From: a virus
Taxonomy: Duplodnaviria; Heunggongvirae; Uroviricota; Caudoviricetes
DNA: 34,499 nucleotides
Virus record (IMG/VR): IMGVR_UViG_648276647_000016
Coordinates: 1-34,499 of that record
Reading direction: 5' to 3' (one strand)
Below the pieces are notes generated by a model that worked only from the letters and a program-made list of their open reading frames with translations, was not told where the DNA came from and did not search any database. The position numbers and the translations under genes were made by a program. The stretch's first letter is position 1. Each line of letters starts with the position of its first letter. Positions 2,765 to 33,054 of the stretch are shown one piece after another.

Positions 2765-5239
2765 TTATTGCGGAGTGACATCCTGAGGTCGCCACCAGTA
2801 TGTCTGGTTAAACTCTTTCTTTGAACGTTGCTCCATTTTACGCAAATAGCCTGGTGAAAAATACTCCTGCATCTGGTTAAAGATCATGTGATCGAGAGCC
2901 GCCTTCAAGTACCAGAGATTCGCACCAGGCATCAAACCTTTCCCCAGCTTAACCAGATCACCACCAGTCTGCTCATTCTTCCCTTCCACAGCATTTAACG
3001 GTATGCCCTGAGCAATCTTCACTACGTCATCAACCAGACCAACTACCGGGCCAAGCATCGACGCTAGTGCGCCGCTCCCGTACCTGGTGTGGTCAGAGAA
3101 AAGAAAATCACCGTACAACCCTGCCCCACCACCTTTTAAAAATGCATTTATCCAGAATTTAACCATGTTGTCACCGGTCATTTCTTTTGGATTTCTCCCA
3201 TTAATAAGATCAGTAATCTGCATGGAAAGAGCACCAAGCATGGTTGTGCTTGCTAAAAACGTTGCTATATATGCTGCACGCCCACCAGCAGACGGCATCC
3301 CCATAGCTCTATGCCAGTGACGCATAACTACCGAGATAGGGAACGATTTAAACAGGAAAACACTTCTCGTTAATTCACCTTTCCATGTTCCACGCTGAAT
3401 ACCAGAACCGGTTATCAGTTGCTCACGTGCTCCCGGTGTAATAACAGCCATATCAACTTCTTCAGTTACGGCACCGAGCAGTTTACGCATTGCCTCAAAT
3501 TTCACGCGTTCAGGCTCACCAAGATGTTTAACTGCTGAATCAGGGATACGCATAATGCTTTCCGGTGTCAGCATCGTATTATTACCGTTCCCCCAGTCCT
3601 CCTGTTGCGCCAGCTTCCATACGCTCCAGTCTGTGTCAGTAATCCCTTTGCTTTTCAGGATACGAAAATCAGAGTCATCGAGGCTACGAAGGTCTGGCGT
3701 CCGTGACACTACTTCTCCCAGGCTTCCCATCATGGTTACGCCATAGGCGCGCTTGTGCGCATCTGACCATGCTGTAAGCCCACTGGCACGCATTACGGCC
3801 GTTGCCGCCCAACGAGACACTGACGGCCCCATATTATCCATCGCCCAGCGGTTAACGCTGCCAAGTAGAGATTCCATCGCCAGACCAGCGCGGCGCGCCC
3901 GCACAAGTTCTGTACGGTTCGTTGGGTCCATAGCTTCAAGCTGGTTGCGGAATAACTGGTTCATTGGAAGGTTGGTAACCTTCGCCGACAGATACATGGT
4001 TCCAAGATCAGAGAACGATGACAGCAACGCGGATCCGAGTCTGCTGGCAACCAGCCAGTTGCGGATATTGTCAGACCATCGCGCGATGTGCGGATTCGCT
4101 ACAGGCTGTGTCTTTCCGGAAATAAAGTTGTACAGATTCTCTGTGTTGTTCGCCAGCCGCTCGACTTTACCGGTTTTACTCGGGTTAGCTGTTGCCGTTT
4201 CTGCCTTCACCTGATCAAGAAGAGAGCGGAAAACATGATCGGGGTTTGGGCCATATGTTTCCACCAGTGCAATATCTTTACTGATACCTTCCAGGTGACC
4301 GACCATGATTTCCCATAGAGAGCGATCGCCATAAAGTTGCTGATATTGCAGATAGGAATCTGCATCTTTGAAATGTATCTGTCGTGATGCATTACCACGG
4401 TTAGCACGTGCGCCGGAAATTCGCATTCCGGTATCAGTAAGCTTATTCAGCCCACCAGTAGCGATCGTGTTATAAGCCTCTCCAAGAAATGCAGACAACT
4501 CAGCATCGTTCATCAGTTGTCCATCGGCTCGGGTATAATATTTGCGATCCAGCTTACCTATAACATCGCTAACCCACTTATCCTTTGATACCGCCCCAAC
4601 CTTTTCCATAGAATGATGTTGAGGGATCCCCCAGTTTTCGAGATAGCCAATGTCCCCACCAGCATCATTAAACCGGCGGCGCAGTAGCTCTGTCACTTCT
4701 CTCCACGCCTTAGCACCTTTTCTTGCTTTAGCATTGCCAGTATTTTGCCCCCGCATTTCATATACCAGGTCACGTACGCCCGCTTCATCTTCAAACAGAC
4801 CAAAAAAGCGAGGATCAACTGCTTCGAATGCCCCCTGCAATTGACTCAATGCATAATCACGGGTGGCTTTTGTTCTGGATTCAACAGAGAGGAAATTCGA
4901 TTTACCGTCTGCATTAAAAGCAATAGTACGGTTAAGAGCACCGAGTTTCCCATCAGCCCCTTGATAGCTATTGATAAATTTATCCAATCTCTGACGTGCG
5001 GCTATAGTGAGGGCCACACGACGTTTATTTAATGCCGCTTCTCGCTGTAATTCTTCAGATGCCAATTGTGCTGCTCGATATAGCCGCTCTGATTCGGAAA
5101 GTTGTCGCCACGACATCGGGTCATCACGAGCAATGGAGCGCATATTTCGATAAATGCGGTCTTCAATGTTCTGTATTTCTCGCGCCGTTAACGTGCGCTG
5201 CGCCGCCTGCTGGACCGCTTGTATACATTCCTGTCTCAT
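2765..5239 (-). CDS. Internal virion / ejection protein, large (T7 gp16-like by position and size)
   Basis: 824-aa ORF, last large gene of the late operon after two other internal-protein genes; assignment is by synteny and size, not a recalled sequence match. Confidence 0.5.
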   Translation of the reverse strand: MRQECIQAVQQAAQRTLTAREIQNIEDRIYRNMRSIARDDPMSWRQLSESERLYRAAQLASEELQREAALNKRRVALTIAARQRLDKFINSYQGADGKLGALNRTIAFNADGKSNFLSVESRTKATRDYALSQLQGAFEAVDPRFFGLFEDEAGVRDLVYEMRGQNTGNAKARKGAKAWREVTELLRRRFNDAGGDIGYLENWGIPQHHSMEKVGAVSKDKWVSDVIGKLDRKYYTRADGQLMNDAELSAFLGEAYNTIATGGLNKLTDTGMRISGARANRGNASRQIHFKDADSYLQYQQLYGDRSLWEIMVGHLEGISKDIALVETYGPNPDHVFRSLLDQVKAETATANPSKTGKVERLANNTENLYNFISGKTQPVANPHIARWSDNIRNWLVASRLGSALLSSFSDLGTMYLSAKVTNLPMNQLFRNQLEAMDPTNRTELVRARRAGLAMESLLGSVNRWAMDNMGPSVSRWAATAVMRASGLTAWSDAHKRAYGVTMMGSLGEVVSRTPDLRSLDDSDFRILKSKGITDTDWSVWKLAQQEDWGNGNNTMLTPESIMRIPDSAVKHLGEPERVKFEAMRKLLGAVTEEVDMAVITPGAREQLITGSGIQRGTWKGELTRSVFLFKSFPISVVMRHWHRAMGMPSAGGRAAYIATFLASTTMLGALSMQITDLINGRNPKEMTGDNMVKFWINAFLKGGGAGLYGDFLFSDHTRYGSGALASMLGPVVGLVDDVVKIAQGIPLNAVEGKNEQTGGDLVKLGKGLMPGANLWYLKAALDHMIFNQMQEYFSPGYLRKMEQRSKKEFNQTYWWRPQDVTPQ

Positions 5240-22869: not shown

Positions 22870-24369
22870 GTGACGCTCAATACTTCTCAGGTCAGTTACT
22901 ATATGACTCAGCGTAAGAAAGGTATAACTCAGCATATCTCGGCCATGAAGGCTGGTATCTCAGTCCGTTCTGGTCGTCGGATCGAAAAAGGAGAGTGGGC
23001 AAAAAACAGTGTTCGGCACTGGCGCACACGCAAAGATCCTCTGGAAGCTGTGTGGGACAGCATGCTTGTTCCTCTGTTGAAAGAGAGGCCGGCTCTGACA
23101 CCAACAACTCTGCTGGAGATGCTACAGGATAAATATCCCGGCCAGTATCCCAACAGCCTTCGAAGAACAATGCAACGGCGAGTTCGCGAATGGAAGCTAC
23201 AGTATGGTGCAGAGCAGGAGGTCATGTTCCGCCAGCGACATCAGCCCGGTCTGCGAGGTCTGTCGGACTTTACTGAACTGAAAGGTGTAGTTGTCACCAT
23301 CGCCGGTAAGTTGTTGGCGCATAAGTTGTATCACTTCCGTCTGGAATGGAGCCACTGGAGCTGGATGCGGGTTGTGCTGGGTGGTGAGAGCTTCTCTGCT
23401 CTGGCTGAAGGTCTGCAGGAAGCCCTCGGACAACTGGGCGGAGTGCCGGTAGAACATAAAACGGACAGCCTGAGGGCAGCATGGAAACAACAGGGCGAAG
23501 ATGGACGCCGCGAGCTGACTGAGCGTTATGCTGCTCTCTGTCAGCACTACGGAATGCAGGGCGTACACAATAATGCTGGTCGGGGCCACGAAAATGGCTC
23601 GGTTGAAAGTGCCCACGGACATCTGAAAAGGCGTATCTGTCAGGCGTTGATACTGCGGGGCAGTAACGACTTCAGCACCATAGAAGAATATCAGGCCTTC
23701 ATCACTCAGCAGGTTATGCGGCACAACCGTAACAATCAGGATCTGGTCAAGGAAGAACGTCTTCATCTGAAACCGCTGCCGCTTCGTCGCAGTGCTGACT
23801 ATGATGAGCTGACTGTGAGGGTTAGCCGCAGCAGTACCATCAATGTGAAGCACGTCGTCTACAGCGTACCTTCCCGGCTTGTAGGTCAACTGTTACGGGT
23901 CCGGTTATGGGACGATCGTCTGAGCTGTTATGTTGGCAGCAGCGAGGTCATGAGCTGCCCTCGTGTCAGACCAGAAAAAGGGAAGACGCGGGCCCGTCGT
24001 ATCGACTTCCGACATGTGATCGACAGTCTGGCAAAAAAGCCCGGTGCGTTCTGCCATGCAACGCTGAGAAATGACATCCTGCCAGACGATGAATGGCGGA
24101 GACTGTGGCGTCGCTTATGTAATCATCTGGAACCCGACATGGCAGGAAGGCTGATGGTACATGCCCTGAAACTGGCTGCAGGATACGACGATATCTCAGT
24201 CGTGGCAAAAGGTATGGAGCAGATGCTGAATACCCCGGGAAACGTGGATCTGCACCGGCTGATGCGCTTCCTGGGTATAAAGGAAAAGGCGTTGCCGGTA
24301 GTCAATGTGAAACAGCATAACCTGAGCAGTTATGAGCAACTACTGCGTGGCAAGGGAGGTTCGCAGTGA
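22870..24369 (+). CDS. istA: IS21-family transposase IstA
   Basis: 499 aa with N-terminal HTH-like region and central DDE-type domain; GTG start with AGGAAA Shine-Dalgarno (alternative ATG at 22903); stop overlaps the istB start. Confidence 0.7.
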   Translation: MTLNTSQVSYYMTQRKKGITQHISAMKAGISVRSGRRIEKGEWAKNSVRHWRTRKDPLEAVWDSMLVPLLKERPALTPTTLLEMLQDKYPGQYPNSLRRTMQRRVREWKLQYGAEQEVMFRQRHQPGLRGLSDFTELKGVVVTIAGKLLAHKLYHFRLEWSHWSWMRVVLGGESFSALAEGLQEALGQLGGVPVEHKTDSLRAAWKQQGEDGRRELTERYAALCQHYGMQGVHNNAGRGHENGSVESAHGHLKRRICQALILRGSNDFSTIEEYQAFITQQVMRHNRNNQDLVKEERLHLKPLPLRRSADYDELTVRVSRSSTINVKHVVYSVPSRLVGQLLRVRLWDDRLSCYVGSSEVMSCPRVRPEKGKTRARRIDFRHVIDSLAKKPGAFCHATLRNDILPDDEWRRLWRRLCNHLEPDMAGRLMVHALKLAAGYDDISVVAKGMEQMLNTPGNVDLHRLMRFLGIKEKALPVVNVKQHNLSSYEQLLRGKGGSQ

Positions 24370-24689
24370 GCAATATCCATCACCTTGAACGCAGCCTGCG
24401 TAAACTACGCCTGACACGAGTTGGAGCTGAATGGCACGCTCTGGAAAAACGAGCGCTGGCAGAAGGCTGGACACCATCGCGCTATCTTCTGACGCTATGC
24501 AATGAAGAACTCCTGTGGCGCGAGAGTGAAAAACTGCGTCGTTATAAAAAGGAGGCCCGGTTGCCAGTTGCCAAAACGCTAAGCGAATACGACTTCAGTC
24601 AGGTGCCGGAACTGAATGGAGCTCAGTTCCGGCAACTCTGTGAAACGACAGACTGGGTTGATGCTGGAGAAAACGTTCTGCTGTTCGGG
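24366..24689 (+). pseudogene. istB: IS21-family helper ATPase IstB, N-terminal fragment
   Basis: MSNIHHLERSLRKLRL...DWVDAGENVLLFG matches the IstB N-terminus up to the Walker A position, where the expected GPSGVGKTH is replaced by unrelated sequence. Confidence 0.65.
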
Positions 24690-24847
24690 GCCAGCGCATT
24701 AGCACGCACCAGTTGCACTTCCAGTTGCGTTGCCAAATCGCTGATCAGCTTTGCCACACTGCGCATATCAACGGCACCACATTCAGCTTTCAGTTCCGAA
24801 GCCATCTCATGCCCGGCGGCAACTAACCCTTTGATATTACTTTCCAT
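24690..24847 (-). pseudogene. N-terminal fragment (~52 codons) of a phage early-right gene, truncated at the IS21-family junction
   Basis: MESNIKGLVAAGHEMASELKAECGAVDMRSVAKLISDLATQLEVQLVRANA reads as protein-like; beyond ~24690 the frame is antisense to istB. Confidence 0.4.
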
Positions 24848-24908
24848 CTTTACCCTCGCTTATCCACATAACTTATTGATTACATTGATAACTAAAAAGA
24901 TCGTCGAT

Positions 24909-25253
24909 TCAGAACTCTTCGATATTCCAGCCACCATCTGCTTTCTTTGGTTTAACCGTTACCCCGATAATTCGGAACGGATACTGATCTGCGGCGACTT
25001 TGGTTTTCACCCTAGCGTCGTCGGTCCAGAAACCTTTCACTTCGTGCAGTTCCATCTCTCCTGTGGCGAGCATCACAGCGAAATCTGGCGTATAGAACGT
25101 GTTGTCAGCTAACCGCAGCTTGATACCCTCGAATCGATACCAGGCTATTTCCCCTGCGCGTTTACGCTGCTCAAGGTGCTGGCAATACGCAGATTCTGTT
25201 TTGTTCATCTGGCCTGTTTTGAGTCGACCAAGAGCCTGTATCTGTTTTCTCAT
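24909..25253 (-). CDS. DUF1064-like phage protein (putative PD-(D/E)XK-fold)
   Basis: 114 aa; pattern YRFEGIKLRLA...YTPDF...ELHEVKG recalled from DUF1064 proteins of lambdoid replication regions. Confidence 0.5.
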   Translation of the reverse strand: MRKQIQALGRLKTGQMNKTESAYCQHLEQRKRAGEIAWYRFEGIKLRLADNTFYTPDFAVMLATGEMELHEVKGFWTDDARVKTKVAADQYPFRIIGVTVKPKKADGGWNIEEF

Positions 25254-27718: not shown

Positions 27719-28303
27719 ATGAAAAGTATCCAGGACGTCCGCAGGCAAAATCTCAACGACTTGATCGACCGTGAATTCAATGGTGTTCAGACGCGGATGG
27801 CAGAAAAACTTGGAACTCAGGCAAATCTGGTAAACCGCTGGGCTCTTGGCAAGAAGGTTATCGGCGACCAGGTTGCTCGAAAAATTGAAGCTGCCGCCAA
27901 TAAACCCCGTAACTGGCTTGATATCGATCGCTCGCTTTCTCATGAAGGTTTTCAGCCTGTCGGCCCAAGCGACATTGGTCAGCTGGCGGCTCACAACCTG
28001 GAACGCTGGATGAGCGAAAGCCGCGACCTTTCAACGCAGGGAAAACTTCACCGCGCATCCGGCGTCGCCCAGGTGACAATCAGCCGCCTGTTAAACAATG
28101 AGGTCAGCGTTTCCATTTCCACCCTGGAGAATGTTGCATCCGCATTCGGGCGTCACGGATATGAACTACTGATTCACCCGCACGACCCTGCGACTATCAA
28201 CTATGACCGCTCGCGCTACGCATTGTTACCCGAAACCGAGAAAGCAAAGATTGAAAGTTACATTGAATTTGTCATCAACCAGAACGAAAAAAGCAAACAA
28301 TAA
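27719..28303 (+). CDS. Prophage immunity repressor, tandem HTH domains, no S24 peptidase domain
   Basis: 194 aa with two XRE-like HTH segments (QTRMAEKLGTQANLVNRW and LHRASGVAQVTISRLLN); no Ala-Gly/Ser-Lys autocleavage module; divergent from cro and followed by a terminator. Confidence 0.65.
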   Translation: MKSIQDVRRQNLNDLIDREFNGVQTRMAEKLGTQANLVNRWALGKKVIGDQVARKIEAAANKPRNWLDIDRSLSHEGFQPVGPSDIGQLAAHNLERWMSESRDLSTQGKLHRASGVAQVTISRLLNNEVSVSISTLENVASAFGRHGYELLIHPHDPATINYDRSRYALLPETEKAKIESYIEFVINQNEKSKQ

Positions 28304-28322: not shown

Positions 28323-28350
28323 TAAGCCGCCTCATGGCGGCTTTTTTATT
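28323..28350 (+). terminator. Rho-independent terminator (AAGCCGCC-TCAT-GGCGGCTT + TTTTTATT)
   Basis: Perfect 8-bp stem plus T-tract 20 bp after the repressor stop. Confidence 0.7.
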
Positions 28351-28360
28351 GCCCATGCTA

Positions 28361-28438
28361 TTACCTAATGGGTAATTTTTTTAACTCATATCTATTGACA
28401 TCAAACCAAATACGCATAATTATTACCTCAACGGTAAC
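28361..28438 (+). promoter_or_regulatory. PL-like promoter (TTGACA 28395-28400, -10 near 28417-28423) bracketed by operators TTACCTAATGGGTAA (28361-28375) and TTACCTCAACGGTAA (28424-28438)
   Basis: Consensus -35 hexamer, AT-rich -10, and the downstream operator lies over the predicted transcription start. Confidence 0.6.
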
Positions 28439-28456
28439 AGACCGAGGTAACAAGTT

Positions 28457-28609
28457 ATGCAGTGGAAAATCATCAACGGTTGGTACTGCGTTACTGCATG
28501 CGGATTCATGAGCTGGAAGTTCCGCACCTTACAGGAAGGCATTAAGTGGGCTTTCGTCAGCAAAGAAGCTCGCGATGTGGCCAATGATAACGAGATATGG
28601 GAGGGCTGA
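28457..28609 (+). CDS. Small hypothetical protein, first gene of the early-left operon (50 aa, Trp/Cys-rich, hydrophobic N-terminus)
   Basis: Hand-called (below the ORF-track size cut-off): ATG 28457 preceded by GAGG; stop overlaps the next start. Confidence 0.35.
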   Translation: MQWKIINGWYCVTACGFMSWKFRTLQEGIKWAFVSKEARDVANDNEIWEG

Positions 28610-28611
28610 TA

Positions 28612-28911
28612 ATGAACGTTAATCAGCAGAAAAATCTTCAAAAAATCATGCTGGCATTCGACAAGGACTACCGCCTGTCAGAACAGCTATATGACCGACA
28701 AGTTGAACTGATCGAGAGCATCCGGCTTCATCAACTGGCCTCAACTTTTGACGCTGTAACAGGCAAAGGAGTTCGCCAGGAAGTGCTGGAGGCAGCTAAA
28801 GACAGCCCTGAGTTCGAAGAACTTATGGATGCCTACCGGCGCGAGGCAATGGCTATTATCGCCCGCTGGGATCTGGCGGATCGGATTGATGGGCAGAGGG
28901 AAGCGGCATGA
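28612..28911 (+). CDS. Hypothetical early protein
   Basis: ORF from the ATG at 28612 (track start 28597 is further upstream in frame); stop overlaps the exonuclease start (ATGA). Confidence 0.45.
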   Translation: MNVNQQKNLQKIMLAFDKDYRLSEQLYDRQVELIESIRLHQLASTFDAVTGKGVRQEVLEAAKDSPEFEELMDAYRREAMAIIARWDLADRIDGQREAA

Positions 28912-29729
28912 AACCGGGAATTTATTTCGACATCAGCAACGAAGACTACCACGCCGGGGACGGCGTGAGTAAGTCGCAACTGGACATGGTTGCCAAGAAT
29001 CCGGCGCTTCTTAAATGGGTTCAGGCAGCACCAGAAGACGAAGAGAAAAAGTCTGCACTGGATATGGGAACCGCATTGCACTGTCTGCTTCTGGAGCCTG
29101 GAGAATTCAACAAACGCTTCATTGTTTCACCGAAATTCGATCGTCGGGCGAAACAAGGTAAAGCTGACGAAGAAGCATTTCTTCGTGATGTAGCGGATAT
29201 GGGGATTACGGTACTTGATGCCGAGCAGTGGCGGAAACTGGAGCTTATGCGTGATAGCGCAATGGCTCACCCGGCGGCACGCTGGATGCTGGAAGCACCT
29301 GGTTACTGCGAAGCATCAATGTACTGGAATGATGAAGAGACTGGTGAGTTGTGCCGCATTCGTCCAGACAAATGGCTGAACGAGCACAACGTGATCGTCG
29401 ACGTGAAAAAGGTTGCAGATATGGACCGTTTTGCACGCCACATCGAGGAGTTCCGCTACCACGTGCAGGACGCAATGTACCGCGAAGGAGCAATGAGGGT
29501 TACTGGTCAGCCACATGGTTTTTTCTTTCTTGCCGTGAGCGAAAGCATTGATTGTGGTCGGTATCCGGTACGCGTGTTCGAGCTGGATGCGCCGGATGTC
29601 GATGCCGGGCACGCTCTGTTCCGCCGGGATCTGAATACCTATCACGAATGCCGCATCAACGATGAATGGGGCGGAGTGGAAATTATTAAACGCCCTGACT
29701 GGGCACGTAAACAGGATATGTACGTATGA
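28908..29729 (+). CDS. PD-(D/E)XK-family exonuclease (RecE C-terminal domain / Cas4-like fold)
   Basis: 273 aa; N-terminal GIYFDISNEDYH and later IRPD...VDVKK motifs; translationally coupled to the annealing-protein gene. Confidence 0.65.
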   Translation: MKPGIYFDISNEDYHAGDGVSKSQLDMVAKNPALLKWVQAAPEDEEKKSALDMGTALHCLLLEPGEFNKRFIVSPKFDRRAKQGKADEEAFLRDVADMGITVLDAEQWRKLELMRDSAMAHPAARWMLEAPGYCEASMYWNDEETGELCRIRPDKWLNEHNVIVDVKKVADMDRFARHIEEFRYHVQDAMYREGAMRVTGQPHGFFFLAVSESIDCGRYPVRVFELDAPDVDAGHALFRRDLNTYHECRINDEWGGVEIIKRPDWARKQDMYV

Positions 29730-30607
29730 GCAATGATATCGCAATCACATCACAACCAGGCGCAACTGTAGGCACTGCTGCGGCAATATTCAGCCCCGAG
29801 GGCATGAATCAACTGGTGCGTTTCGCGGAGTTGATGTCACAAAGCAAAGCGACTGTACCGAAACATCTTGAAGGCAAACCTGCCGATTGTCTGGCGGTGA
29901 CCATGCAGGCGGCACAGTGGGGAATGAACCCTTTCGCCGTGGCGCAGAAAACGCATGTGGTAAACGGAACGTTAGGCTACGAAGCACAGTTGGTAAACGC
30001 GGTCGTATCCTCTTCCAGCCTGCTGGCGACACGCCTGAATTATCGCTGGAGCGGTGACTGGTCGAATGTTAACGGCAAAACAGATAAATCACCGAATCTG
30101 ACGGTAACTGTGTCAGCAGTTCTTAAAGGAGAAGCAGAACCCCGTGAGCTTACCATCAGTATGGCGCAAGCCGGAGTGCGTAACTCTCCATTGTGGGAAC
30201 AGGATCCGCGCCAGCAACTTGCCTATCTTTGCACGAAACGATGGGCTCGCCTGCACGCTCCTGATGTACTTCTCGGTGTTTACACCCCAGACGAATTACA
30301 GGAAACGGCACCGCGCGTTGAGCGAGACATTACTCCGCAAACGACCACTGCTGCGGGAATGAACAGTCTGATCAACGCTAAACCAGCGAAAAAGCCTGAT
30401 GAGCAAACGCGTAAAGAGGATAGCCGTGATCCAGAAGAAATGCTGATGGCCTTTACCAGCGCAGCGATGAATTACAGCACTGTCTCCGAACTGGATAAGG
30501 CTTACAAATACATTGCACAAAAACTTTCAGATGATGACGAACTGCTGGCAAAAGCCACCGACGTTTACAGCGTTCGTCGGGAAGAATTAAACGAAACATC
30601 TATATAA
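29726..30607 (+). CDS. Single-strand annealing protein, RecT/Redbeta family
   Basis: 293 aa; segments GMNPFAVAQKTHVVNGTLGYEAQL and ERDITP resemble my recollection of lambda Bet; paired with an exonuclease. Confidence 0.6.
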   Translation: MSNDIAITSQPGATVGTAAAIFSPEGMNQLVRFAELMSQSKATVPKHLEGKPADCLAVTMQAAQWGMNPFAVAQKTHVVNGTLGYEAQLVNAVVSSSSLLATRLNYRWSGDWSNVNGKTDKSPNLTVTVSAVLKGEAEPRELTISMAQAGVRNSPLWEQDPRQQLAYLCTKRWARLHAPDVLLGVYTPDELQETAPRVERDITPQTTTAAGMNSLINAKPAKKPDEQTRKEDSRDPEEMLMAFTSAAMNYSTVSELDKAYKYIAQKLSDDDELLAKATDVYSVRREELNETSI

Positions 30608-31014: not shown

Positions 31015-31314
31015 GTGAGAAAGTTAAGCCGACTTGAAAAATATCACATGAACAAGGTTTCAATGCGCCGTCCTTCAAAGGTTATCGCCGTTACTCCTGC
31101 GGCGATAGAGATCGAAAAACGCGCGATTGAAAGAGAGAAAAAAGGGCAATTCCGCATTGCCGCTCACCTTTGGCTTCAGTGTATGGATGTTGCTTCTGGT
31201 GATGTTGAACGTGCAAGGATCGCGGTTCGCAGGGACCAATGTATCACAAAAGGTAACGGCCTTCGCCGTGGCGACTATAGCGGTATAGGATGTTGCGGGG
31301 TGGTTTATGAATAA
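31015..31314 (+). CDS. PerC-like transcriptional regulator (tentative)
   Basis: 99 aa; GQFRIAAHLWLQCMD...ERARIAVRRDQC resembles the PerC/Pch G-W-R-AA-WL core as I remember it; start uncertain (GTG 31015 or internal ATG). Confidence 0.4.
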   Translation: MRKLSRLEKYHMNKVSMRRPSKVIAVTPAAIEIEKRAIEREKKGQFRIAAHLWLQCMDVASGDVERARIAVRRDQCITKGNGLRRGDYSGIGCCGVVYE

Positions 31315-32410
31315 ACAAAACAATAATATAAAAGGTAATATCATGAGCAAGGTAGGCGATTATTTCTTTGAATTTCCCGCATCACGAGGAACGCAGGGAA
31401 GCACTGTAATACTTATGATGACAGTACCAGCAAGAGCACTATCGAGAGTATTGGCAACCGACAATACGGGAAGTACCCTTGAACGTTCTCAACGTGAAAT
31501 TAATCCAACTAGGGTAAAAAAGTTTTATCAATATTTAGTCAACGCTTACGAGAAAAAGGAACCATTTATTGTTCCACCATTGGTCGGAAATTGTAACTCA
31601 GAAATAGAGTTCCATGAGATTGGAAATACTAATGTCGGTTTAGCTAGATTTCCTATGGATGCAGAAATAAAATTATTTGATGGACAGCATCGTGCTGCAG
31701 GATTAGCTGAGTTCTGCCGTAATTATGGTGAAACAATTATGATTCCTCTTATGCTTACGCATAACCTTCCTTTGAAGGCGCGTCAGCAGTTCTTTTCTGA
31801 CATTAATAATAATGTTTCAAAACCATCTGCAGCAATTAATATGGCGTATGACGGACGAAACGATGTTGCCCAAGAAATGGTGTCTTTCCTGTCGCAACAT
31901 GACACTTTTGCAGAAGTCACTGACTTCGAGCACAACGTTGTTCCGTCAAAGTCAAACATGTGGGTGAGTTTCAAAGCATTAAGTGATTCAACATCAAAAT
32001 TTTGTATTCATAATGGAAAAAAACTAGAAATTGGTAACATCGAGTCAGTATGGGAATCATGGTTATGTCTTACACAACTAGAAGCAATTCGCCATGGTAC
32101 AAAGCAATCAGAATACAAAAGAGAATATATCCAGTTTCATGCAGTGATGATTAACGCTTTTGGTTATGCTGTTCAGCAAATGATGGTTAATCACTCAATA
32201 AAAGAAATAATTTCAATGATTGAAACATTATGTGCAAATACTGACTTCGCAGAAAGAGAGAATTTTTTCCTAATGGATAATTGGGTTGGGATCTGCACGA
32301 AAGCAAGCCAGGAAAAACTATCAGTTATTGCCAATGTAGCAGCACAGAAAGCGGCAGCAAACAGGCTGATACAAGCCTTTACCAAAGGAAGTCTGGGAGC
32401 AGAGCAATGA
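31307..32410 (+). CDS. DGQHR-domain protein (DndB-like, ParB/Srx-fold)
   Basis: Contains the exact DGQHR signature (KLFDGQHRAAGLAEF); ~355-367 aa like DndB; gene is strongly AT-rich; alternative start at the ATG at 31343. Confidence 0.6.
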   Translation: MNKQNNNIKGNIMSKVGDYFFEFPASRGTQGSTVILMMTVPARALSRVLATDNTGSTLERSQREINPTRVKKFYQYLVNAYEKKEPFIVPPLVGNCNSEIEFHEIGNTNVGLARFPMDAEIKLFDGQHRAAGLAEFCRNYGETIMIPLMLTHNLPLKARQQFFSDINNNVSKPSAAINMAYDGRNDVAQEMVSFLSQHDTFAEVTDFEHNVVPSKSNMWVSFKALSDSTSKFCIHNGKKLEIGNIESVWESWLCLTQLEAIRHGTKQSEYKREYIQFHAVMINAFGYAVQQMMVNHSIKEIISMIETLCANTDFAERENFFLMDNWVGICTKASQEKLSVIANVAAQKAAANRLIQAFTKGSLGAEQ

Positions 32411-33054
32411 AAAAATACACGCTAATATATGCAGATCCACCCTGGGTATACCGGGACAAAGCCGCAGATGGTAATCGCGGCGCTGGTTTTAAATATCCGG
32501 TTATGAGTGTGCTGGATATCTGCCGCCTTCCTGTGTGGGATTTGTCCGATGAAAACTGTCTGTTGGCCATGTGGTGGGTGCCAACACAACCACTCGAAGC
32601 ACTAAAAGTTGTTGAAGCCTGGGGATTCCGTCTGATGACCATGAAGGGCTTCACGTGGATAAAATGTGGTAGTCGACAACCAGATAAACTAGTTATGGGT
32701 ATGGGACACATGACTCGCGCCAATAGTGAAGATTGCCTGTTTGCGGTAAAGGGAAAACTACCTCCGCGCATTAATGCAGGTATCGTTCAGTCATTTACCG
32801 CACCGCGGCTTGAGCATTCAAGAAAACCAGATGTCGTTCGTGAAAAACTTGTGCAATTGTTAGGCGATGTTTCTCGCATTGAACTGTTCGCCCGCCAGTC
32901 GTCTCATGGCTTCGATGTTTGGGGTAATCAGTGCGAAGACCCGGCAGTGCAACTACACCCTGGATACGCGTTGGATATTGGCGGATTAACAAATGCATTC
33001 AGCAATGCTCCGCTGTCACCAACAGACAACCAGGGGCGGGAGCGTGCAGCATGA
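32407..33054 (+). CDS. MT-A70-family DNA N6-adenine methyltransferase
   Basis: Starts MKKYTLIYADPPW (DPPW catalytic motif) with further conserved stretch HSRKP; start overlaps the DGQHR stop (ATGA). Track start 32281 is an upstream extension. Confidence 0.7.
   Translation: MKKYTLIYADPPWVYRDKAADGNRGAGFKYPVMSVLDICRLPVWDLSDENCLLAMWWVPTQPLEALKVVEAWGFRLMTMKGFTWIKCGSRQPDKLVMGMGHMTRANSEDCLFAVKGKLPPRINAGIVQSFTAPRLEHSRKPDVVREKLVQLLGDVSRIELFARQSSHGFDVWGNQCEDPAVQLHPGYALDIGGLTNAFSNAPLSPTDNQGRERAA

Follow-up and report, generated by a model that had tools for sequence, protein, structure and literature searches.

The Gam protein of phage lambda acts as a block on RecBCD, the host nuclease for DNA ends. 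GamS serves as a tool for recombineering, for expression from linear DNA in cell-free systems and for potentiating quinolones. Gam's N-terminal helix plugs the channel for single-stranded DNA in RecB (PMC5218532). In the record of phage phi80 a second protein of this kind, GamL, is described as a 'gam-like host nuclease inhibitor' that is 'toxic without Mog'; its gene directly follows mog, the 'modifier of Gam / anti-toxin for Gam', and is followed by rec and exo. Here we describe two small open reading frames (ORFs), ORF1 and ORF2, at the head of the early-left operon in a stretch of tailed-phage DNA of 34,499 nucleotides (IMG/VR record IMGVR_UViG_648276647_000016; the whole stretch is called the window below), which by its sequence is a temperate podophage prophage of Escherichia coli of the phiV10/epsilon15 type (genus Uetakevirus). 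Both are ordinary genes, already on record as hypothetical in a prophage type that is common. What profile comparisons add, with moderate support, is the assignment of ORF2 as a divergent member of the Gam family, an assignment in conflict with the Chi-rich genome.

ORF2 starts at ATG 28612 (MNVNQ...), 2 nt past the stop codon of ORF1 and behind a GGAGGG at 28600-28605 that lies inside the end of ORF1, and it stops with TGA at 28909-28911. Since homologues do not use the in-frame upstream ATG at 28597, the protein has 99 amino acids (aa) and not the 100 given in the first-pass annotation. The mean column identity among 29 homologues is 88%, and the ratio of nonsynonymous to synonymous differences (pN/pS) is 0.14-0.5 with pS saturated; by these substitution patterns the gene is clearly coding and evolves faster than ORF1. 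The family is small, with 32 representatives among 1.84 billion proteins, and was aligned as 20 members of 32-94% identity. The window protein carries a net charge of -5 and has an isoelectric point (pI) of 4.86, as compared to 98 aa and a pI of 4.99 for GamS, and the whole ORF2 family is acidic.

Profile searches pointed to lambda Gam as the single best match of ORF2 in both PDB and Pfam, each time in the same register. With the 20-member profile as query (hmmsearch), the top two of 177,635 PDB sequences were entries of GamS (5mbv, 2uuz; E 0.11), and the match was colinear, with residues 30-87 aligned to 32-90. For the orthologue P0086, encoded in a locus with the order Rep-ORF1-Mog-ORF2-exo-RecT-AlpA, the best of 24,736 Pfam models was Gam (PF06064, E 0.0042, 17.7 bits), residues 31-94 corresponding to profile positions 33-96 of 98. 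Alignment of the ORF2 family to 97 Gam sequences with hhalign gave a probability of 81.2% (P 1.2e-5, score 33.6, residues 33-86 to 35-90), and 72% when P0086 was left out; the Gam sequences in the phage collection are almost all more than 90% identical. Control alignments scored 18.1 with reversed Gam, at most 18.3 in 60 column shuffles and at most 23.3 in 60 block shuffles, the shuffles staying at or below a probability of 18%. Eleven other small early-left proteins used as decoys (RacC, YdaE, KilR, YdaF, YdaG, HK544 Kil, HK544 cIII, three GZ7 ORFs and the RecE N-terminus) gave 1.4% or less against Gam. In the reverse direction, when 3054 six-frame ORFs from 27 loci were searched with the Gam hidden Markov model (HMM), the ORF2 orthologue of locus L103 ranked first (E 2.6e-5) and phi80 GamL second, and ORF2 orthologues took up nearly all of the following top places; within the window ORF2 was the sole ORF with E <1. 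A canonical Gam was found neither in the window nor in the flanks of its relatives. From these alignments, homology of ORF2 to lambda Gam is likely, and ORF2 is probably a divergent member of the Gam family.

The similarity could instead have arisen by chance, with both ORFs being lineage-specific early proteins for host takeover or anti-defence that stand first in the operon for immediate expression after derepression. Such a reading would fit the narrowness of the two families, the poor structure models of both proteins, the public names, all of which are 'hypothetical', and the fact that no match attains a curated threshold. We nevertheless regard it as unlikely, since three independent searches converge on one family and one register in a positional analogue of gam, and the shuffle and decoy controls are clearly lower.

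Several observations weigh against a Gam relationship or a Gam-like action of ORF2, and those on Mog and on the Chi octamers given further below belong to them as well. Every sequence signal lies below the curated threshold: the Pfam gathering score for Gam is 25 bits, the one orthologue with a Pfam Gam match, P0086, stays under it, and the window protein itself has no Pfam Gam match at E <=1. The signal stems mostly from distant family members, and the window's own clade taken alone gave 9-14% in hhalign, out of register. The N-terminal helix of ORF2 does not align significantly with that of Gam (global hhalign 22%), the similarity covering the C-terminal two thirds of GamS. Between ORF2 and phi80 GamL, hhalign gave 0.5% and BLASTP found no match. 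The monomer model of ORF2, itself of low confidence, had no match with E <1 when Foldseek compared it with PDB and BFVD, and Gam was no exception. Finally, positions 58-93 of the Gam HMM match two segments of ORF2, residues ~8-43 and ~55-88, which hints at an internal pseudo-repeat of two long helices (DY.L.EQLYDR versus EFEELMDAYRR).

The last of these points, together with the out-of-register alignment of the close clade, suggests a repetitive helical pattern and bears on a further reading, in which ORF2 is an accessory of the recombination module that does not inhibit RecBCD: a helper of the exonuclease and RecT or a partner of Mog-type proteins, comparable to P22 Arf/Abc1. In that case the likeness to Gam would come from an acidic helical-hairpin scaffold that both share, or from very old common ancestry in which the function was not kept. 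We consider this possible but less probable. The coupling of ORF2 to recombination genes without exception speaks for an accessory, as does the Chi content given below. The best-match position of Gam, in one register in both PDB and Pfam, and the low scores of the eleven decoys speak against it, and so does the indifference of ORF2 to the type of exonuclease and RecT behind it, which argues against a specific partner there.

Searches for other inhibitors and for direct matches did not name the protein. P22 Abc2 (PF11043), Mu Gam and T7 gp5.9 gave no Pfam match at E <=1 among the 20 family members, and no PDB sequence besides Gam was matched. The window protein had no match in Pfam, NCBIfam and PADLOC scans, nor in a phmmer search of PDB. 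The ideas that ORF2 is RacC, or the N-terminal 600 aa of RecE separated by a gene split, had no support from hhalign. The AlphaFold model (predicted local distance difference test score, pLDDT, 67.6) is of low confidence and shows helices at 3-50, 56-62 and 66-98. The statement of the first-pass annotation that neither product resembles anything nameable thus stands for ORF1 and gives way, for ORF2, to a weak resemblance to lambda Gam; the structure prediction proposed there as a check was made for both proteins and was uninformative on fold.

ORF2 is tightly linked to the recombination genes behind it. Its stop codon overlaps the start codon of the exonuclease gene at 28908 in an ATGA (28908-28911), and the stop of the exonuclease overlaps the start of recT in the same way (29726-29729); with the 2-nt gap between ORF1 and ORF2, these junctions bear out the translational coupling to the exonuclease/annealing pair that had been noticed at first. 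Comparison of the loci showed that ORF2 directly precedes an exonuclease that is either DUF3799/RecE-like or YqaJ/lambda-Exo-like. RecT differs between the two types, the ATGA junction does not, and the exonuclease type is exchanged even among loci with identical ORF1 and ~95% identical ORF2. ORF2 is coding, conserved, co-transcribed with and coupled to recombination genes and independent of the exonuclease type, and its similarity in sequence to GamS is weak yet specific. Since it is kept before two exonuclease types, its function does not appear to be tied to one nuclease partner, as would be expected for a host-directed protein. The exonuclease and RecT are two genes with an ATGA overlap in the window (28908-30607), in E. 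coli RefSeq entries and in other relatives. In phiV10 the same pair is annotated as one 586-aa 'RecE-RecT fusion' (PhiV10p37, L001:4609-6369), which probably stems from a frameshift in phiV10 or from the way its record was annotated.

In phiv142-3, a Citrobacter werkmanii prophage, a Kluyvera prophage and locus L103, a gene of 330-344 aa lies exactly between ORF1 and ORF2. Its product is a full-length homologue of phi80 Mog (agt), with 45-64% identity and E-values of 1e-51 to 1e-67. These inserted homologues are coiled-coil proteins (L008:2459-3493, L013:4001-4993, L014 ~4004-5000, L103:2980-3993). The window has no mog. Homologues of Mog occur in 163 phage records (Pseudomonas, Vibrio and E. 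coli lambdoids), where they usually head recombination modules and are mostly annotated as 'TolA' or hypothetical; one lies directly before erf in D3 and one before cIII in HK544. Adjacency to Mog was at first taken as specific evidence for a Gam slot and was downgraded: with Mog homologues so widespread and standing also beside Erf or cIII, it places ORF2 in a recombination module and leaves the Gam slot unproven. The earlier suggestion that this is the position of N, Kil or Gam holds in part, for ORF2, with its remote in-register similarity to Gam and its place inside the recombination module; for ORF1, no relation to any of N, Kil and cIII was detected.

The Chi octamer (GCTGGTGG) is in tension with an inhibitory ORF2. 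Two surveys describe phages as Chi-poor when they have Gam, GamL, Abc2 or MuGam, and as Chi-rich when they are Rec+ and have no inhibitor (PMC3784561; PMC12315714, Table 1), with ~12% of inhibitor-bearing phages as exceptions (PMC12315714). Chi depletion is a correlate of anti-RecBCD activity, not its definition. The window carries six Chi octamers, all in one orientation, where 1.04 are expected from dinucleotide shuffles and 1.5 from synonymous-codon shuffles that keep every protein sequence and the codon usage (P ~0.002). Chi is thus ~4-6 times over-represented and is co-oriented with the structural genes. Epsilon15 likewise has six Chi octamers in 28.5 kb, all co-oriented with its structural genes. 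The enrichment and co-orientation in both genomes are the signature of a RecBCD left active (PMC3784561, PMC12315714), as an accessory role would have it, and they make a full block of RecBCD by ORF2 less likely. The ORF2-bearing phages are not listed in the supplements of the two surveys (PMC3784561, PMC12315714).

One way to accommodate both sets of data would be a Gam-fold ORF2 that modulates RecBCD or hits another end-processing nuclease, with ORF1 as its partner or modifier in the manner of Mog and GamL in phi80. We rate this version as improbable. If it were true, a modulator would let phages of the epsilon15/phiV10 type pair a Gam relative with a Chi content that is unusually high and fully co-oriented, two traits which in current surveys all but exclude each other.

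For ORF2 as a Gam-like nuclease inhibitor of the lambda Gam lineage, we judge the case to be about evenly balanced. It would be made together with the phage exonuclease/RecT pair as a small acidic helical protein and, by analogy with Gam, would probably sit, as a dimer, in the site where RecBCD or a related end-processing nuclease binds DNA ends. Phage DNA in linear or rolling-circle form would thereby be shielded, and the ends would be left to the phage recombinase. The fold, dimerisation, target and inhibition are what we infer from the analogy.

The promoter in front of the two genes is of the sigma-70 type and lies between two copies of the operator ATTACC-N5-GGTAAY (Table 1). The promoter is kept in phiV10, phiv142-3, BUCT554 and L103, and the operator at 28422-28438 upstream of ORF1 in every lineage examined; repressor sites are annotated at the equivalent place in the epsilon15 RefSeq record. 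By the positions of promoter and operators, a repressor-controlled early-left operon begins with ORF1 and ORF2. That two small genes follow directly behind the early promoter, as first noted, was confirmed, and both are real. Counting sites within 2 mismatches of ATTACC-N5-GGTAAT, the window holds 11 copies of the operator motif (at 920, 1300, 18852, 21979, 21997, 25256, 25318, 27263, 27648, 28360 and 28422), as compared to 0.98 expected. Several of them are paired and lie distant from the immunity region, near terminase and replication genes, which suggests that the repressor controls several promoters across the genome.

Table 1. Features of the ORF1/ORF2 region, Chi octamers of the window and of epsilon15, and genes of the inserted IS21-family element. 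Positions are those of the window unless stated otherwise.
Feature	Position	Strand	Basis
Prophage repressor with two helix-turn-helix (HTH) domains (phiV10 gp40, epsilon15 gp38, SPC32H Rep type)	27719..28303	+	Pfam HTH_3 E 1.3e-9; repressor in phiV10 and epsilon15 annotation
Intrinsic terminator closing the repressor gene	28324..28343	+	8-bp GC-rich stem followed by T run; terminator in phiV10 annotation
Repressor operator ATTACCTAATGGGTAAT with perfectly palindromic arms, upstream of -35	28360..28376	.	motif search
Early-left promoter: TTGACA 28395-28400, 17 nt, AATTAT 28418-28423	28395..28423	+	promoter scan, 10/12 matches
Repressor operator ATTACCTCAACGGTAAC, overlapping -10 and transcription start	28422..28438	.	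motif search
ORF1, 50 aa (phiV10 gp39, epsilon15 gp37, PHROG 898)	28457..28609	+	PHROG match, pN/pS, conserved Shine-Dalgarno/ATG
ORF2, 99 aa, acidic (pI 4.86), predicted all-helical (phiV10 gp38, epsilon15 gp36, PHROG 856)	28612..28911	+	
RecE-like PD-(D/E)XK exonuclease (DUF3799)	28908..29729	+	Pfam PF12684 E 4.8e-22; NCBIfam exonuclease VIII, C-terminal 606-873
RecT single-strand annealing protein	29726..30607	+	Pfam PF03837 E 1.3e-31
Chi octamers (GCTGGTGG), window	3282, 4656, 6903, 11886, 15354, 33628	minus	
Chi octamers, epsilon15 (L018, epsilon15 1-28500)	6443, 15391, 19262, 21457, 27803, 27911	plus	
IstA-like transposase (IS21-family element)	22870-24369		
IstB ATPase (IS21-family element)	24366-25112		

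ORF1 runs from ATG 28457 to TGA 28607-28609, with a GAGG Shine-Dalgarno sequence at 28444-28447, 9 nt upstream, and encodes 5 Trp and 2 Cys residues, as in the first description of a 50-aa Trp/Cys-rich product. Its conserved core is MQWK..G(W/F)Y.VT.CGLMSWKF..L.E(G/A)I.WAF. It adjoins ORF2 without exception (36/36 phage records, 80/80 IMG/VR loci) and is more conserved: identity to epsilon15 and Tyrion is 79-85% for ORF1 versus 46-51% for ORF2, and ORF1 also exceeds the repressor. Pairwise comparison of ORF1 sequences gave pS values of 0.6-0.7, with synonymous sites near saturation, and pN values of 0.05-0.12. Over the first 38 codons the sense frame has a pS of 0.61 and a pN of 0.115, which corresponds to a pN/pS of 0.19, as compared to 0.39 in the wobble-aligned antisense frame and 1.59 in the +1 frame. 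Amino acid identity over the same codons is 79% in sense and 71% in antisense, and replacements are milder in sense. The ATG and Shine-Dalgarno sequence are invariant in 11 of 11 lineages examined while synonymous change is free. This substitution pattern favours the sense frame and marks ORF1 as a genuine protein-coding gene, with the protein-level constraint limited to approximately residues 1-38. The last ~12 codons switch reading frame between lineages on nearly the same DNA (...IWG* versus ...GVSK*), and this tail doubles as the ribosome-binding site of ORF2.

The short length of 50 aa, the frame shift in the tail and the poor structure model could also mean that ORF1 is a non-functional leader that loads ribosomes for ORF2, or that the real gene is the antisense ORF (window 28423-28641, minus strand), which is open in all lineages and annotated in Tyrion. 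The antisense frame is open because its wobble positions and those of ORF1 fall together. Some records skip ORF1 or give an antisense ORF in its place; that of Tyrion annotates the shadow ORF as gp39 (L004:3251-3463, minus strand) and omits ORF1. The ends of the antisense ORF vary between lineages and it would extend into the early promoter. With the better fit of the sense frame over 38 codons, the invariant start and Shine-Dalgarno sequence at a pS of 0.6-0.7, and a conservation above that of repressor and ORF2, a non-functional ORF1 is very improbable.

Searches with ORF1 in family, structure and defence libraries gave no evidence for any particular function. The window protein had no Pfam, NCBIfam, PDB or PADLOC match, and Pfam on 16 homologues none except DUF2985 at E 0.03. 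Against Kil, cIII, KilR, YdaE, YdaF, YdaG and RacC hhalign gave 3.9% or less, and shuffle-calibrated Smith-Waterman comparison with small early proteins gave p-values of ~0.03 or higher, uncorrected for 20 comparisons. Identity with lambda Kil (PF06301) was rejected at 0.3% in hhalign, and so was identity with lambda cIII (PF02061), for which a motif MQ(Y/W)xI...GW...RxL(R/Q)(D/E)G had been spotted by eye (hhalign 0.5%, shuffle p 0.17-0.41). Ral, phi80 Kil, phi80 gp43, KilR, YdaE, YdaF, YdaG, HK544 Kil/cIII and the GZ7 division inhibitor had no support either. The hydrophobic N-terminus first described is rich in aromatic residues but is no membrane segment. The highest Kyte-Doolittle mean over 19 aa is 0.57 and the grand average of hydropathy is -0.29, so that a holin- or toxin-like small membrane peptide was discarded as well. 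A zinc or disulfide protein (CxxxC) was dropped because Cys11 is not invariant, being Leu in the L103 orthologue. The AlphaFold model (pLDDT 53.8) is too poor for a structure search. ORF1 holds the place that lambda, phi80 and Rac give to kil/cIII-type genes, a likeness in position only. Our best guess, held with low confidence, is that ORF1 may be an early effector directed at the host, or may modulate ORF2. As a strongly conserved and widespread 50-aa early protein that has no known relatives, it is a reasonable, not an exceptional, target for work on toxicity or filamentation.

Over the 700 bases around ORF1 and ORF2, identity is 95-97% to Escherichia phage phiV10 and relatives (genus Uetakevirus, epsilon15 group) and 97-98% to prophages in E. 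coli chromosomes, and the region is carried by 559 of 5426 complete E. coli genomes (~10%). The gene order in the window is that of phiV10: a cro-like gene on the minus strand, the two-HTH repressor, terminator, promoter, ORF1, ORF2, the RecE-like exonuclease, RecT, AlpA and PerC. The two genes had been taken as unannotated, which was not correct, since both have gene numbers in phiV10 and epsilon15, RefSeq entries and PHROG families. ORF1 is PhiV10p39 (WP_001198620.1) and ORF2 is PhiV10p38 (WP_088251334.1), each annotated 'hypothetical protein'. Full-length HMM matches were obtained to PHROG 898 for ORF1 (E 1.9e-38, 1-50 of 50) and to PHROG 856 for ORF2 (E 1e-54, 1-99 of 99), both families with function unassigned, and a literature search on the two proteins found nothing. 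An IS21-family element is present at 22870-25112, between the terminase genes and replication gene P, so that the window prophage may be defective. A DndB-like (DGQHR) gene (31307-32410; Pfam DndB E 3.5e-46, PADLOC DndB) at the distal end of the early-left operon is directly followed by an MT-A70 adenine methylase gene (32407-33054); at this site phiV10 has the methylase alone.

If ORF2 works as a Gam relative, a RecBCD-type inhibitor would be present in common temperate podophages that Pfam-based surveys scored as lacking one, namely phiV10, epsilon15, SPN1S and prophages in about one tenth of complete E. coli genomes. These phages would then be reclassified in anti-RecBCD/Chi analyses as clear exceptions, Chi-rich yet inhibitor-bearing, and a second, very divergent sequence type would be added to a family that is used as a tool. 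RecBCD inhibitors trigger several abortive-infection systems, so that ORF2 would in that case also affect which defences these prophages set off.

Compared with the known systems, ORF1 is similar in position to lambda Kil/cIII and to Rac KilR/YdaE/RacC, being a small ORF that lies just upstream of where Gam would stand, and its 50 aa are close to the sizes of lambda Kil (47 aa) and cIII (54 aa), whereas it has no sequence relation to these proteins. With phi80 GamL/Mog, the loci of phiv142-3, the C. werkmanii and Kluyvera prophages and L103 share the order of mog, an acidic protein of 93-99 aa and annealase/exonuclease genes. Phi80 GamL is itself Gam-like over part of its length only, in the N-terminal helix (86%), and has no detectable similarity to ORF2; phi80 also carries mog, unlike the window, and Mog homologues occur without a Gam-type neighbour as well. 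From lambda Gam (GamS, PF06064; PDB 2UUZ, 5MBV), ORF2 differs in scoring under every curated threshold, in an N-terminal helix where the part that enters RecB is not recognisably kept, and in its genomic surroundings, since Gam phages are Chi-poor (PMC12315714) and the ORF2-bearing genomes Chi-rich. Similar to ORF2, Gam is an acidic, helical protein of ~98 aa, and both families are narrow, enterobacterial and fast evolving. In lambda the genes are ordered gam-bet-exo, and ORF2 likewise lies directly upstream of the exonuclease and annealase genes in the early-left operon.

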